31,606 nucleotides of DNA from Spirochaetaceae bacterium (lineage in GTDB: Bacteria; Spirochaetota; Spirochaetia; DSM-27196; SLAA01): positions 1-31,606 of the forward strand of contig PXEI01000170.1 of NCBI GenBank assembly GCA_003564775.1. Reading direction: 5' to 3'. Under the pieces are notes generated by a model, which did not search any database, had not been told where the DNA came from, and worked only from the letters and a program-made list of their open reading frames with translations. The translations under genes and the position numbers were made by a program. Each line of letters opens with the position of its first letter. Positions within the stretch are counted from its first letter, which is position 1. Shown here one piece after another: positions 2 through 5,150 of the stretch.

Positions 2-748
2 GCGCTGGAAGTTGAACCCCCGCCAACCGATACTTCCGAACTGGATACGCTTGCACAACTTGACATTGATTCAGAACTTGCTGATATCGACGAACTCAAA
101 GACAGCCCCGATGACACGGTCGCCGACACCAGCGAACTAGCCGATATCTCGATTGCGTTTCCCGAAGAGGACGAAGAAGAAGACGAGACTCCTCCGGTTA
201 TCACCCCTGAAGATGATACCGAGCAAGATCTTGATACAGAGCAAGAAGCTGATACCGGCGCAAATTCCCAGGCCGAGCTTACGGTAGATGAAGATGAGTT
301 TGAGTTGGATGATGAACTTGACCTTGAGGAAGACGAACTTGAACTCGAGGCAGACAGTCTTACGCTTGAAGAAGACAGCCTCGATCTCGCGGAGGACAGT
401 CTAGAGCTTGATGACGACGAACTAGATGAGGCTGAACTTCCCGAAGACGAACTTGACGACGATGAGCTCGATTCTGAAGACCTTGAATCTGAAGACCTTG
501 AAATAGAGTCACCAGATCAAGAGGCTGAAACCGCCCAGCGCCTTACAGATACCATGGCGGCTGCTCAGGAAGCCGCCGAGAACGATTCGGAACTCAGCGA
601 TGATCTTCGTGAGGAAATTCGCGCGGTACTGCGCTACATGGACCAATTGCTGGAGTCACTCCCCGAGGACAAGATCCAGGAGTTTGCCTCGTCTGAACAC
701 TTTGAGGTCTACAAGAAGCTATTCGAAGAACTAGGGCTGGAAACGTAA
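2..748 (+). CDS. Hyper-acidic low-complexity protein, C-terminal part (5' end lies outside the window)
   Basis: The frame is open from base 2 (ALEVEPPPTDTSELDTL...) to TAA 746-748, so the listed TTG at 305 is internal. The body is very D/E-rich and ends in an ordered helical-looking tail, LREEIRAVLRYMDQLLESLPEDKIQEFASSEHFEVYKKLFEELGL. Confidence 0.85.
   Translation, partial: ALEVEPPPTDTSELDTLAQLDIDSELADIDELKDSPDDTVADTSELADISIAFPEEDEEEDETPPVITPEDDTEQDLDTEQEADTGANSQAELTVDEDEFELDDELDLEEDELELEADSLTLEEDSLDLAEDSLELDDDELDEAELPEDELDDDELDSEDLESEDLEIESPDQEAETAQRLTDTMAAAQEAAENDSELSDDLREEIRAVLRYMDQLLESLPEDKIQEFASSEHFEVYKKLFEELGLET
323..427 (+). repeat. Five degenerate 21-nt (7-aa) tandem repeats in the acidic protein
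   Basis: Units translate as LEEDELE / LEADSLT / LEEDSLD / LAEDSLE / LDDDELD; e.g. cttgaggaagacgaacttgaa and cttgaagaagacagcctcgat. Confidence 0.8.
473..502 (+). repeat. Perfect 15-nt tandem duplication (SEDLE x2)
   Basis: tctgaagaccttgaa occurs at 473-487 and 488-502. Confidence 0.9.
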
Positions 749-921
749 TGGGTTTATACCACAAAATCATCACCGAGGGTGGTGAGACAAGCGACAACGA
801 TATTCTGCCTGAAACCCTCGACGAAAAAAAAAACAGATCTTGTCGGATCTTTTGTCCGACGAGGGGTTGGAGTCGGACGGCCCGCAGGCTAAAGATTTAC
901 GCAAGTTTCTTCAGGAAATAA
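748..921 (+). CDS. Short ORF (57 aa), probable N-terminus of the frameshifted gene 748-1799
   Basis: ATG 748-750 overlaps the upstream TAA (TAATG). It reads MGLYHKIITEGGETSDNDILPETLDEKK up to the A10 run, then NRSCRIFCPTRGWSRTARRLKIYASFFRK to TAA 919-921. It is not in the supplied ORF track. Confidence 0.6.
   Translation: MGLYHKIITEGGETSDNDILPETLDEKKNRSCRIFCPTRGWSRTARRLKIYASFFRK
824..864 (+). promoter_or_regulatory. Candidate recoding signal: A10 slippery run plus downstream stem-loop
   Basis: A10 at 824-833 gives A_AAA_AAA and A_AAA_AAC heptamers in the 748 frame. A stem TCTTGTCGGA (838-847) pairs with TCCGACGAGG (855-864): 10 bp including 2 G-U pairs, 7-nt loop. Confidence 0.55.
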
Positions 922-1799
922 GAAATATAGACCTGGACCTCAGGTCGCCTGTCGTAGCCTTCACAGCTGCAGCCGATCTCCTGCGTGTGAGCAAAGGTGC
1001 TTTACTGCTACGCAGCCACGATGTGGACAGCTTTGTGGTGTGGGCCCAACGCGGACTCGACGAGACAACTCGCCACCGCCTGGAGTTCCCTCGTCAAAAA
1101 ATCTCTCAACTGATACGCGACATGGGCCTCGATTCGCAGCTCACTCAGGCACAAAAGATTGCGGCTGTTTCTCCGTATGTGTCGAATCTTGAAGCTTCAA
1201 TGCTCCGATCGGCGCTCCTGCTCTCGTTCCCGGAGACCGAACCACAGGCTCTGTTTCTCATTTTGGACTCACCCTACCTCACCGATGAGGAGTCCAGTGT
1301 CGTGCTCTTACTTGCGGCAGTTGCAGAGCCAATTGTGGACGCAGTTGATAATAAGATGCTTCGACAGCTGCGCGCTGTCAGTAACGTCCGGCAGCTGAGT
1401 CGTAAGAGTTTTATTCATCATGTTGTCGAGCATGTACGGCATTCCGATCTCGCTGGTCACCTGGTGCAGGTGAAGGTCCAACCGATGATTGACTACCTGA
1501 CTGAACAACATCCTGAACTGGATCAGTTCCGTTGTTTTCAGGATCTTGCTTCGCTTATTTTGCAGGTAATTGGAACCGCGTTCCCTGCCCTCCTTGATCC
1601 TTCAAGACGCATCTGGGTTCATGTTCCTGCGGGCAACGACATTGAGTTGCTCATTGGGCACCTTGCCGAGGTTGTCCGAGCCAGGTTCACGGTACCAGCC
1701 ACGTTTGATGTGCTCACCCATGAAGATACTGAGTTGTTCCAAACTGCTGAGCACGTACACACGCAACTCGACAGTATTCTTGCCGATGTTCAAGATTGA
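840..1799 (+). CDS. Hypothetical protein, possibly GAF-like; likely the body of a 350-aa product starting at 748 via a -1 shift
   Basis: Long ORF whose frame is open from 786 (TGA at 783-785). TTG 840 has no Shine-Dalgarno. The segment KGALLLRSHDVDSFVVWAQRGLD loosely resembles a GAF-type strand pattern (weak). Confidence 0.75.
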   Translation: MSDLLSDEGLESDGPQAKDLRKFLQEIRNIDLDLRSPVVAFTAAADLLRVSKGALLLRSHDVDSFVVWAQRGLDETTRHRLEFPRQKISQLIRDMGLDSQLTQAQKIAAVSPYVSNLEASMLRSALLLSFPETEPQALFLILDSPYLTDEESSVVLLLAAVAEPIVDAVDNKMLRQLRAVSNVRQLSRKSFIHHVVEHVRHSDLAGHLVQVKVQPMIDYLTEQHPELDQFRCFQDLASLILQVIGTAFPALLDPSRRIWVHVPAGNDIELLIGHLAEVVRARFTVPATFDVLTHEDTELFQTAEHVHTQLDSILADVQD

Positions 1800-3474
1800 G
1801 CACGCAAAAAGCGGACATCCCTTTGCAATCTTCAATGGACTGCACCTCCACTCTGGGTACAACCCTGAGCGAGAAGCGCAGAAATTTGTTTTGTCTCAAC
1901 TTGGAAGTCGAGTACCTGCGACGGTACTGGTTGTAGGACCCGGGTTGGGCTACATTGGAGCCGAGCTACGTCGGCGTGGAGCGTTTACTGTTCATGTTTT
2001 TCTCTCGGCCTTCACATACTCTGCGGCTGTTGAACGTGGAGATGCAGCATGGCATCCAAGGTCAGATGACGACGCCATGGCGCTGTCTGCAGCTGAGTCT
2101 CAGGATGCAGTAAGCCTGAGGTCTTTCCTCAGAAGCGTGCTGAATGACACCGACACGGTAGGTCTGGAGGTGATATCCTGGTCCCCCTGCCTGGAGGCTT
2201 TCCCAGCTCAAGCAGAACGTGCCCTGTCTACGGTCGCGGATGTGGTGCGTGAAAGCAATGCCAATTTGACCACCATTGCGGCGTTCGGCGTACGGTGGTT
2301 TCGTAACTTGTGCGCGAACTTCCGCGATATAGGGAGCTTGCGCACCACACCAAGCACTTGTCATGAGGTGGTGCTGGTGGCCGCAGGCCCCTCACTTGAG
2401 GCGGCAATACCAACGCTCCAGGAGTTGTTTCACGCCAACCGACCCGAACTTGAGATTTGGGCGGTCGGTACAGCTTTACGCCCCCTGATAGCGGCAGGAG
2501 TTGCGCCACGTATGGTGATAACGTCCGATGCTTCCTACTTTGCCTTGGAACACCTTAATGCGGAACGCAGTTCGCCAGCTTACTGTATCGCGGCACCACT
2601 CACCGCTGCACGCGGCTTAGCCCGACGCGCCGCTCTGCAAGTAGTACTTAACCAAGGGTCTATAATTGAGCAGGACCTGTACTCGAACTGCCGCCTGCCC
2701 TCAATCTACCTTCCAGCTAACGGTACTGTTGCCGGGACCGCTCTTGAACTTGCGCTGCGGGTTTGTTCCGGACGGGTTGTACTCGTTGGTCTTGACCTTG
2801 GTTACCGTGATATTCAGCCTCATGCCCGACCCCATAGCTTTGAACACTACCTTTGGCGCCAGGAGTCCAGACTGCAGCCGCTCTACAGCATGTTTGCAAC
2901 CCGGGCTTTGGAGCACAGCACCCGTACTTCAAATGGGAGACGAAGCACGCGCCAGTTGCAAAACTATGAATCATGGTTTCGTCGAAGGCTTTCAGAACTC
3001 CGGGGCCGGGTGACAACACTTGGCCCTTCTGCCGTAGAGCTTAACGTTCCGAAAATAACCCCTGACGAGCTCAAAACCTCGGCTCTGCGCGCGACTGTCG
3101 GTACGACGCCTGATTCTGTGACGCCCGCACCACATCAGTCGAACTCAGGCCAAAACCTGGAGTTATCTGATACTGAGCGTCTGGAGGCCTTGAGGGCGTT
3201 GTTTCGCACCTTGGAGCTCCGATTAGAGCGGATCACGGCAATACCCAACAGGGATGAGTTTCTGGATCTCCTTCATCCCCAACGGCGTGCAGCACTTCAG
3301 AATCCATCATCCGCAACTCCTGAGGACCTCCAGCTACTGACCTACCTCAACTGTCGCGGAGTGATAAACTGCATCCAGACGACCGACACCTCAAGCTTCC
3401 AAGAAGAACTCACAAAGGCTGTCGAGACCGTTCATCGCTTGCTCGTCCAACAGAAACAAGAGTATCTGCAATGA
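1786..3474 (+). CDS. Maf/DUF115 family protein (motility-associated factor, MptE-like annotation), copy 1
   Basis: N-terminal LHLHSGYNPEREAQKF, central VVLVAAGPSL, later GTVAGTALELA and VVLVGLDLGY are typical Maf-family motifs. Start placed at ATG 1786, which overlaps the end of the upstream ORF, rather than at 1570. Confidence 0.8.
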   Translation: MFKIEHAKSGHPFAIFNGLHLHSGYNPEREAQKFVLSQLGSRVPATVLVVGPGLGYIGAELRRRGAFTVHVFLSAFTYSAAVERGDAAWHPRSDDDAMALSAAESQDAVSLRSFLRSVLNDTDTVGLEVISWSPCLEAFPAQAERALSTVADVVRESNANLTTIAAFGVRWFRNLCANFRDIGSLRTTPSTCHEVVLVAAGPSLEAAIPTLQELFHANRPELEIWAVGTALRPLIAAGVAPRMVITSDASYFALEHLNAERSSPAYCIAAPLTAARGLARRAALQVVLNQGSIIEQDLYSNCRLPSIYLPANGTVAGTALELALRVCSGRVVLVGLDLGYRDIQPHARPHSFEHYLWRQESRLQPLYSMFATRALEHSTRTSNGRRSTRQLQNYESWFRRRLSELRGRVTTLGPSAVELNVPKITPDELKTSALRATVGTTPDSVTPAPHQSNSGQNLELSDTERLEALRALFRTLELRLERITAIPNRDEFLDLLHPQRRAALQNPSSATPEDLQLLTYLNCRGVINCIQTTDTSSFQEELTKAVETVHRLLVQQKQEYLQ

Positions 3475-5150
3475 GTCCTGCGGGAAACCTGCTCGAACAG
3501 AATATACAGGCACTGCGCTCCGGCCCAATGCGACTCAACCATGTCACAGCTCAGAAAGTGGCGGCGAGCCATGCATCGGACCGCTTGCGAGTGGAGCCCT
3601 CGCGTAGCGGTGGATTTCAGGAGCCAACTGCAACCTTACAAGGCTCGGATGGTGAGCTATTTCTCCACTCTCGATATCGGCCACACGCCGAGGCAGTCAA
3701 ATTTGCCACCAGCATGTCAGTTCACGATAGTGACTATTTGGTTCTGTACGGATTCGGTTTGGGATATGAGGCCGAGGCATTGACCAAAGCGGCGCCCCAT
3801 TTAGAGTTGCGCATCATTGAACCGGACCCCAGCCTGTTGTACAGTGCTTTCTGCCAGAGAGATCTACGAGAGCTTTTTTCCCTGGCGCGGGTTGCAATAG
3901 TCTGCGACGATGATCCACGCTCAGCGGTAGACGCGCTCGACTACCTGCCATTCTTCTTTCCTAAACTCTCGAGCACTCATCTTCGTGCGCGGTTAGCGGC
4001 AGATGATGAGTATTTCAAGAGCTTTGCCGCCAATCTTGACCGGCTGATTGCTGCTGTCGGCCACGACTATCGCGCCTGTGCGGTATACGGACACCGTTGG
4101 TGCGTAAACTCCATCAGAAACCTGCGACTACTCGAGGGTTCTGAGCGCTTGCAATCCTTCAGCTCGTCAGCCACGTGGAACATCGTGGGTGCTGGCCCAG
4201 GTGCGGATGTTGGCGTAGCAACAGACCACACTGCCAACACAATCTACTGCGACACCGTCATTCGCCTGGCCGCTGCATACACCCACACAGACCTTACTGC
4301 CGTTACCATAGACCCTCAGCCTATCTCTAAGCTGCACTATCTTGGAGTTCCAACGGGACAGGTGCGACTGATTGCCGACATTGGAGCCCACCATAGCCTG
4401 TTACAGAGATTCCCACATGTAAGCGTGATTAGTTCCGGGCATCCGCTGCACCGCTACCTGTCTTCTCAGGGGCTTCCCCTTGGGCCTTCGCTAGTTCGTG
4501 GAGGAAGTGTTGCGGAAACCGCTCTCAGAATTGCGCACCATTTAGGAGCGTCCGAGATTGCACTGACTGGACTGGACTTTGCCTATCTGGCCGAAAAAAG
4601 CTACGCTGCCGGAACCTGGATTGAGACCTACCTGCGCACAAGAAGCACCCGACTTCATAGTATTGGCAATCAACATTACGAGTTTATTCAGAAGCGCAAG
4701 GCGACACGTCAAACCGGGGAGTCCGACCCACCTCATGATGGAAGTTACCACACCCAGTTGCTTGACGACTACAAGGCGGCGTTTCTGTCCACCGCTGCGG
4801 AGCTTGGGTTTACTTATTGTCCCGCACAGGGATGTGACTCCAACGCCATATTACGGGCGGAACGCCCGCAACACGAGCCCAACGCGGCTGTGGCCCACCG
4901 GCCTGCGACACATTCGAGGGTTCTACAGGTGCTTCATTGTCTTCATGACGAGCTGTTAGAGTATAAGGTCCCGGACGACGGCCCCTCCCTCAACGCGAGC
5001 TACCGCGAGCTGCGTGCATCCGCCGCGGCAGTTGTCCCCGCGGCAATCTACTATCACGAACGCCAGGGATTGAGCCGTAGCGAAGCCTTGACCGCGTCAT
5101 GTGAACTCATGCTACGTGAGATTTCGCGTTTTATCGGCGACGATAGGTGA
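3471..5150 (+). CDS. Maf/DUF115 family protein, copy 2 (more divergent)
   Basis: LFLHSRYRPHAEA, LVLYGFGLGY, IIEPD, IVGAGPG, GGSVAETALRIA and IALTGLDFAY. ATGA overlap with copy 1. Confidence 0.8.
   Translation: MSPAGNLLEQNIQALRSGPMRLNHVTAQKVAASHASDRLRVEPSRSGGFQEPTATLQGSDGELFLHSRYRPHAEAVKFATSMSVHDSDYLVLYGFGLGYEAEALTKAAPHLELRIIEPDPSLLYSAFCQRDLRELFSLARVAIVCDDDPRSAVDALDYLPFFFPKLSSTHLRARLAADDEYFKSFAANLDRLIAAVGHDYRACAVYGHRWCVNSIRNLRLLEGSERLQSFSSSATWNIVGAGPGADVGVATDHTANTIYCDTVIRLAAAYTHTDLTAVTIDPQPISKLHYLGVPTGQVRLIADIGAHHSLLQRFPHVSVISSGHPLHRYLSSQGLPLGPSLVRGGSVAETALRIAHHLGASEIALTGLDFAYLAEKSYAAGTWIETYLRTRSTRLHSIGNQHYEFIQKRKATRQTGESDPPHDGSYHTQLLDDYKAAFLSTAAELGFTYCPAQGCDSNAILRAERPQHEPNAAVAHRPATHSRVLQVLHCLHDELLEYKVPDDGPSLNASYRELRASAAAVVPAAIYYHERQGLSRSEALTASCELMLREISRFIGDDR

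Follow-up and report, generated by a model that had tools for sequence, protein, structure and literature searches.

A gene on the spirochaete contig PXEI01000170.1 is most likely expressed through a real, deeply conserved programmed recoding site, which from the comparative evidence would be a new example of a known mechanism and not a sequencing error or a dead gene. The contig belongs to a metagenome-assembled genome (MAG) of a Spirochaetaceae bacterium (NCBI assembly GCA_003564775.1, 2.87 Mb in 496 contigs, 75% complete), and its 31,606 nucleotides (nt) are referred to here as the window. The gene occupies positions 748-1799 and is divided at a homopolymer of ten adenines (A10), such that its N-terminal segment lies in one frame (the 0 frame) and its body in the -1 frame (Table 1). 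The best explanation for this arrangement, and probably the correct one, is programmed transcriptional slippage within a single gene, in which the encoded A10 becomes A11 in the mRNA. We infer both that the frame is restored in transcription rather than in translation and how efficiently slippage would occur from sequence comparison.

The 0 frame begins at an ATG (748-750) that shares bases with the TAA stop codon of the upstream gene (746-748, giving TAATG), an overlap that is kept in relatives, and it continues for 28 codons (MGLYHKIITEGG...LDEKK) going into the A10. As a TGA at 810-812 closes the -1 frame, the frame change must fall at or after position 813, where this frame opens 11 nt before the A-run. 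The initial annotation of this DNA had taken the -1 frame to be open from 786, directly after an earlier TGA at 783-785, and was wrong on this point. Its other readings of the layout hold, as the ATG at 748 within TAATG, the A10 at 824-833 and the 0-frame stop at 919-921 can all be read directly in the sequence, and a -1 frame reaching 1799 with a joined product of 350 amino acids (aa) was confirmed. In the joined product, the run lies close to the N-terminus, at codon 26 of 350.

Conservation of the split and its homopolymer

The nearest protein relatives, 72% and about 60% identical, belong to other assemblies, where the annotation in every case gives a truncated body (282-315 aa). On the contigs of these relatives, a 31-aa open reading frame (ORF; MGLYHKII...) overlaps the upstream stop codon and is followed by GACGA10C, a 0-frame stop three codons on, and a body in the -1 frame. 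The 99 GTDB species genomes of the order were all searched with a profile of the protein, and 82 contain the gene. A broader profile was run on 401 genomes sampled from the class, of which 182 have the family, and 80 further loci were retrieved to give 162 loci in all. Related loci come from uncultured Spirochaetales and Spirochaetia of soda-lake and hypersaline sediments.

At 74 of the 162 loci, from 19 GTDB families, the gene is split with its body in the -1 frame (71 with A10, two with A9 and one with a tandem A9 and A11), and a split requiring a +1 shift was found at none. The gene is uninterrupted at the others, either with no run (67/162) or with an in-frame run of A9-A11 at the same position in the linker (15/162), apart from six loci that are unclear or at a contig edge. 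All 43 loci found in four families (f1, f7, f8 and f10) are split at the A-run, 42 at A10 and one at A9, with a -1-frame body in each case, while every classifiable locus of f2, f4, f5, f6, f9 and f11 is one uninterrupted ORF (the single f3 locus is unclassified). Among the 80 further loci, 31 are split alike, in 15 more families.

An A10 alone is not improbable in a genome of 2.87 Mb, and four A/T runs of at least 10 are present in the source genome. An A-run placed identically in the gene and with an identical -1 offset, however, recurs in 74 genomes in which the split loci have a median GC content of 0.60 (maximum 0.69) and encode proteins diverged to about 20% identity, and this recurrence is therefore not due to chance.

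The frame break could also be a mistake of sequencing or assembly, or the gene could be a pseudogene inactivated by a recent mutation. Homopolymers are error-prone, and the source genome is an incomplete and fragmented MAG of low coverage, with a word depth of about 4 in the one sequencing run that contains it. Contigs from three soda-lake DNA runs cover positions 600-718, upstream of the A-run, and a search for RNA runs found none. This explanation would have to produce the same run length and offset in 74 genomes from many studies, even though assemblers do output A11 (G066, L109 and L110) and, in the source genome itself, T11. As both halves of the gene are also under selection and its structural model folds with confidence (both described below), error or decay is scarcely credible as the origin of the split.

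The 15 orthologues with an in-frame run are L109, L110, L111/L214, L085, L162, L189, L198, L188, L190, L217-L219, L225 and L227. Their occurrence shows that the homopolymer itself is retained, beyond the frame break alone, and in these in-frame lineages slippage would give the short product instead. At the locus with tandem runs (L230, genome G706, family f77), A9 and A11 stand 8 nt apart at about 730-760 of the oriented locus, and the body is still in the -1 frame. A metagenome pattern scan for the N-terminal peptide followed by A9 yielded 12 matches, all in unrelated AT-rich sequence, and no homologue.

Coding evidence for one fused protein

Uninterrupted orthologues begin with MGL(M/L/I)xR(V/I)L, and many also contain GLLxRA. 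The short N-terminal ORFs of split genes have both of these motifs, which indicates that the functional product is the fused protein of 350 aa. Two orthologues, L109 and L110, carry an in-frame A11 in the arrangement GAA AAA AAA AAA GCN, which has the form that would be expected if one A had been added to the split type gA10gcc.

Substitution patterns provide additional support for both parts of the gene. Within genus g1, substitutions upstream of the run fall on 0-frame codon positions 1, 2 and 3 in the numbers 65, 26 and 106, and from the first codon past the run they fall on -1-frame codon positions 1, 2 and 3 in the numbers 114, 85 and 232. The same -1 periodicity was seen downstream of the run in other genera. 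Judged by these counts, both parts are under coding selection, each in its own frame. Together with the conservation of the split and of the run far beyond the species, this supports the proposal of the initial annotation that a chromosomal, non-mobile spirochaete gene is recoded here. That annotation had also suggested examining orthologues for the A-run and the frame break; both are kept, at 74 loci, and the orthologues of this lineage are not the uninterrupted, run-less genes that would be expected if the break were an artefact.

The two parts could in principle be separate products made without recoding, with a small peptide from the first ORF and a body initiated at an internal codon or by re-initiation. 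A TTG that had been named as a possible independent start is present at 840 in the window, and in all relatives the gene callers annotate the body apart from an ORF of 31 aa. The TTG, however, is TTA in close relatives of the same genus, and no conserved internal start for the body was found among the split loci, where the first ATG, GTG or TTG lies 2 to 134 codons past the run. In some genomes this codon falls within the GAF domain, and a Shine-Dalgarno (SD)-like motif hardly ever stands before it. In addition, purifying selection in the -1 frame acts on the codons directly past the run, and both parts are found within single-ORF orthologues. Separate initiation of the body is therefore very unlikely.

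Public annotations, in the entries seen, split the gene into a spurious 31-aa ORF (2882-2977 in L002 and 2816-2911 in L003-L005) and a body of 282-315 aa (P0001-P0006), the annotated start of which is an internal codon that varies from assembly to assembly. Database entries for the family are N-terminally truncated, such that the true N-terminus and the size of the protein are both wrong. No publication on this gene was found, and literature on slippage in connection with spirochaetes or GGDEF proteins yielded nothing relevant; the portions of a 2016 recoding review that were available contain no mention of spirochaetes.

Probable slippage by RNA polymerase, or possibly by the ribosome

In the proposed mechanism, the frame of the gene would be broken on purpose at an A10 within a disordered linker, and plain decoding would give only a short peptide (57 aa here, 31 aa in most congeners). 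RNA polymerase would slip on the A10 (T10 in the template) and produce a fraction of mRNAs with A11 (also A8 or A14). An A11 mRNA would put the N-terminal segment and the body in frame, with a predicted junction of ...LDEKKKQILSD.... Through the site, full-length protein would in this way be made in a fixed proportion to transcription, perhaps with the short peptide as a second product.

The homopolymer alone is constant among the split loci. The A-run starts at codon position 2, 3 or 1 in 46, 19 and 9 loci, respectively, and more than one phase occurs inside single families. The bases flanking the run vary (G, T or C on the 5' side, G or C on the 3' side), as does the distance to the 0-frame stop, which lies 1 to 50 codons past the run with a median of 11 and closes a tail peptide that is not conserved. 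As phase, flanks and stop distance vary around a constant homopolymer, the pattern argues for slippage by the polymerase rather than for classical ribosomal slippage. The length of the run points in the same direction, since it is 10 at 71 of the 74 split loci, in all three phases, and below 9 at none, although a heptamer suffices for the ribosome; this argues for a mechanism that depends on length and not on phase. Efficient slippage has a threshold of about 9 A or T in many bacteria, and programmed examples are known in the A9 of Thermus thermophilus dnaX and in mxiE of Shigella (PMC1088944); two-ORF dnaX genes with A10 have been attributed to transcriptional realignment (PMC3711429). Finally, an A11 revertant should arise readily, yet the out-of-frame state persists among proteins of about 20% identity, which argues for selection for the out-of-frame state.

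Programmed -1 ribosomal frameshifting, in which two tRNA-Lys would re-pair on A_AAA_AAA (825-831) or A_AAA_AAC (828-834), either alone or along with transcriptional slippage, is the main alternative, though a rather unlikely one. It is consistent with the need for exactly -1 at all 74 split loci and with the stem-loop that the initial annotation had placed 4 nt past the A10, which is present and stable (an 11-base-pair (bp) stem, -14.8 kcal/mol and z -2.8 when 834-868 is folded alone). However, such stimulators are not conserved. Over the 50 nt past the run at 44 split loci, the mean folding z was -0.4, as against -0.1 and -0.3 in control windows, and z was below -2 at 7 of the 44 loci, as against 2 and 7 in the control windows. 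The hairpin of the window is absent from congeners, and RNAalifold on five of these gave a positive covariation term and no sign of covariation; by this comparison the hairpin is specific to its own lineage and not conserved even within the genus. An SD-like motif (GGAG, GAGG, AGGA or GGGG, 5-20 nt upstream of the run) was present at only 2 of 44 loci. An Rfam scan of 650-1050 found no element, and a promoter and terminator scan found nothing at the A-run.

A second A10 site with a -1 split is present in the same genome, in a ChlI/ChlD-like gene outside the window (Table 1), and it supports the transcriptional slippage reading. It is one of the four runs of at least 10 mentioned above. In 19 relatives from families f1 and f7 an A10 or A9 stands at the corresponding place of this gene, and the other A/T runs of at least 9 in the source genome have no split-gene layout. 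The gene belongs to a published recoding family, fs-chlD, which includes Spirochaeta thermophila and has been described as using ribosomal frameshifting at AT-rich slippery sites with downstream structures (PMC9227772); that a published ribosomal case has its own A10 site in the source genome also counts in favour of the ribosome. The fs-chlD protein is unrelated to the one studied here, and the split there is at mid-gene, such that both products are large.

In the mxiE gene of Shigella flexneri, a cellular gene of the chromosome or virulence plasmid and not part of a mobile element, a short ORF precedes a long one, as in the spirochaete gene, and the full-length regulator requires a transcript into which one additional non-templated base has been inserted at a homopolymer of about 9-10 (PMC1088944). 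It differs in its gene family, in having a run of U in the mRNA where the spirochaete run is A, in its restriction to one genus as against 19 GTDB families, and in that slippage was experimentally shown for mxiE and is deduced from comparison here. The tau/gamma gene dnaX (A9 in T. thermophilus; A10 in the two-ORF form, Antonov et al. 2013, PMC3711429) shares a conserved A9 or A10 at the frame junction and two product lengths, and realignment in the two-ORF form was argued from the same kind of comparative evidence (PMC3711429). Both families include in-frame as well as out-of-frame lineages. The templated frame of T. thermophilus dnaX leads to the long product and slippage to the short one, which is the reverse of what is proposed for the spirochaete gene, and the spirochaete site is near the N-terminus, such that its short product is a peptide of 31-57 aa. 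The -1 frameshift sites of Escherichia coli dnaX and the IS3 family have in common with the window the A_AAA_AAA/G heptamer, the -1 direction and a downstream hairpin at a suitable distance, but their SD-like element and conserved structure have no conserved counterpart here, where the run is 10 and not 7 and stands in every codon phase. Genes of Buchnera and Blochmannia that are broken at A-runs of about 10 reportedly stay functional through polymerase slippage (Tamas et al. 2008). Those frameshifts are strain-variable and belong to degenerating AT-rich genomes under weak selection, whereas the spirochaete run is kept across families in free-living lineages of about 60% GC.

Slippage during replication, rather than transcription, would lead to phase variation, with heritable ON (A11) and OFF (A10) subpopulations of which the assemblies show the majority. 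A10 tracts are hypermutable in DNA, and the family holds in-frame runs (A9-A11, 15 loci) as well as out-of-frame ones, with one species split and five in frame in genus g184 alone. At the site in the chlD-like gene, the run of G062 is an A11 and in frame, whereas that of its congeners G060 and G063 is A10 between identical flanks. The state of the run nevertheless follows phylogeny, as the gene is split at 43 of 43 loci in the four families named above and at 9 of 10 in f91 but at 0 of 4 in f83, which like f80 is always in frame. A10 is also found in all of the independent assemblies, from different sources, of one near-identical congener (L003, L004, L005 and L007). No OFF state that requires +1 occurs among the 74 loci, though replication slippage gives insertions and deletions, and the protein is of a cytoplasmic regulator type and not a surface antigen. 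Phase variation is therefore improbable. The initial annotation had offered three mechanisms for the site, and of these transcriptional slippage is ranked first, a hairpin-stimulated frameshift of the dnaX/IS3 type is unsupported in the form in which it was proposed, and the phase switch is the one just judged improbable.

Several points weigh against programmed transcriptional slippage and deserve to be set beside the evidence for it. An A10 holds A_AAA_AAA in every phase, and thus a perfect X_XXY_YYZ heptamer, which is in the 0 frame in the window; as phase 2 is found at 46 of 74 loci and a G past the run at 54 of 74, many loci have A_AAA_AAG, the dnaX motif, and a direction that is only ever -1 fits the ribosome equally well. 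A slippage-prone RNA polymerase in spirochaetes is assumed by analogy with other bacteria, and some AT-rich bacteria, such as Borrelia, may suppress slippage (Baranov et al., PMC1088944). The split genomes that can be classified by assembly type are all short-read MAGs, and the split form is in none of the single-contig genomes examined. A single origin of the split was neither shown nor excluded by a gene tree, the deep nodes of which were unresolved. Ribosomal and transcriptional slippage may both contribute, and an identical protein would result from either.

The protein, its neighbours and possible roles

Searches of Pfam and NCBIfam gave no family for the recoded protein and no Pfam GGDEF match, although GAF matches in Pfam were obtained for a few family members. 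A match to AurF at E 0.004 was below threshold and was dismissed. An AlphaFold model built on a 44-sequence alignment (predicted local distance difference test (pLDDT) 89.7, predicted template modelling (pTM) score 0.85) consists of low-confidence N-terminal helices, a linker in which the A-run is located, followed by a GAF domain and a GGDEF-like domain. Among solved structures, Foldseek matched PelD best, from residue 158 to the C-terminus (4etz/4dn0, E 2e-5 to 1e-4), diguanylate cyclases were also matched, and the best clusters in the AlphaFold DB were GGDEF-domain proteins (template modelling (TM) scores of 0.69-0.71). The GG[DE]EF motif, searched as [GAS]G[DE]EF, is present in 0 of 44 members, and the corresponding hairpin reads DPSRR in the window protein; a patch of the form R...QD is conserved in the family.

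From the model, the product is read as a non-catalytic, PelD-like regulatory protein of the cytoplasm. It shares its domain order and the lack of a catalytic GG[DE]EF with PelD of Pseudomonas aeruginosa, a receptor for cyclic di-GMP (c-di-GMP) made up of GAF and degenerate GGDEF domains. It differs from PelD in having no transmembrane helices and no family match at the sequence level, and whole-chain TM-scores are low (0.25-0.30) because the orientation of the domains differs. Binding of c-di-GMP is putative here.

The order of a TP_0179-like gene, the recoded gene and two MptE/Maf-like genes, with overlapping starts and stops, is kept in relatives, L002-L005 included. This arrangement suggests that the recoded gene and the two tandem MptE/Maf-like genes, which are of the motility accessory factor type, form one translationally coupled operon. 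With a TP_0179-family gene on one side and two Maf-type (flagellin glycosylation-like) genes on the other, its position points to a regulator of motility or the envelope that is under dosage control. The site would gate a putative second-messenger receptor of PelD-like type, either at a fixed ratio or tunably.

Few conserved recoding sites are established in ordinary chromosomal bacterial genes, with dnaX, prfB, mxiE and chlD among those known. The present site is unusually broad, at 19 GTDB families, and unusually clean, with the homopolymer alone conserved, and so could serve as a natural test bed for polymerase slippage against ribosomal slippage, while the in-frame and out-of-frame lineages amount to a natural experiment on how such sites evolve. 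It is tentatively possible that Spirochaetia have a lineage-wide layer of expression control, in which slippage sites of A9-A10 are conserved in unrelated chromosomal genes, such as the GAF-GGDEF-like regulator and the chlD-like gene, and toggling at the species level between an in-frame A10/A11 and an out-of-frame A10, both of which occur in the present family, sets the ratio of short to full-length product. If this were so, the slippage rate of the polymerase would be a global, and possibly condition-dependent, regulator of a set of genes. The findings are of relevance to specialists in recoding and to the annotation of the family.

Table 1. Features of the recoded gene and its surroundings. 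Positions are those of the window, except for the last row.
Feature	Position	Strand	Description
Upstream gene, 3' part	2-748	+	TP_0179-family acidic protein; ORF open from the window edge
0-frame ORF	748-921	+	57-aa peptide beginning MGLYHKIITEGGETSDNDILPETLDEKKN; stop TAA 919-921
N-terminal segment of the recoded gene, 0 frame	748-823	+	MGLYHKIITEGG...LD; ends at the A-run
TGA stop in the -1 frame	810-812	+	Closes the -1 frame upstream
A10 homopolymer	824-833	+	Candidate slippage site; preceded by the -1-frame stop (810-812) and followed by the 0-frame stop (919-921)
0-frame tail past the A-run	834-921	+	NRSCRIF..., ends at TAA 919-921; peptide not conserved
Gene body, -1 frame	831-1799	+	KQILSDLL...ADVQD, stop 1797-1799; linker helices, GAF domain and degenerate GGDEF-like domain
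Stem-loop past the A-run	838-864	+	11 bp, 838-848 paired with 854-864, loop 849-853
First Maf-like (MptE-like) gene	1786-3474	+	PF01973 at 7e-18; probable ATG at 1786 overlaps the end of the recoded gene
Second Maf-like gene	3471-5150	+	PF01973 at 5e-11, Maf_flag10_N; start overlaps the stop of the first Maf-like gene
ChlI/ChlD-like AAA+-VWA gene, outside the window	Contig C166 (= L108) 2906-5019, run 3725-3734	-	Split at A10, VWA part in the -1 frame

The family PF27359 (TP_0179) is assigned to the orthologous upstream genes in L002, L004 and L005. In the upstream protein of the window, the C-terminal third is extremely acidic, with D/E-L-D/E repeats, and is followed by a conserved C-terminal helix region.

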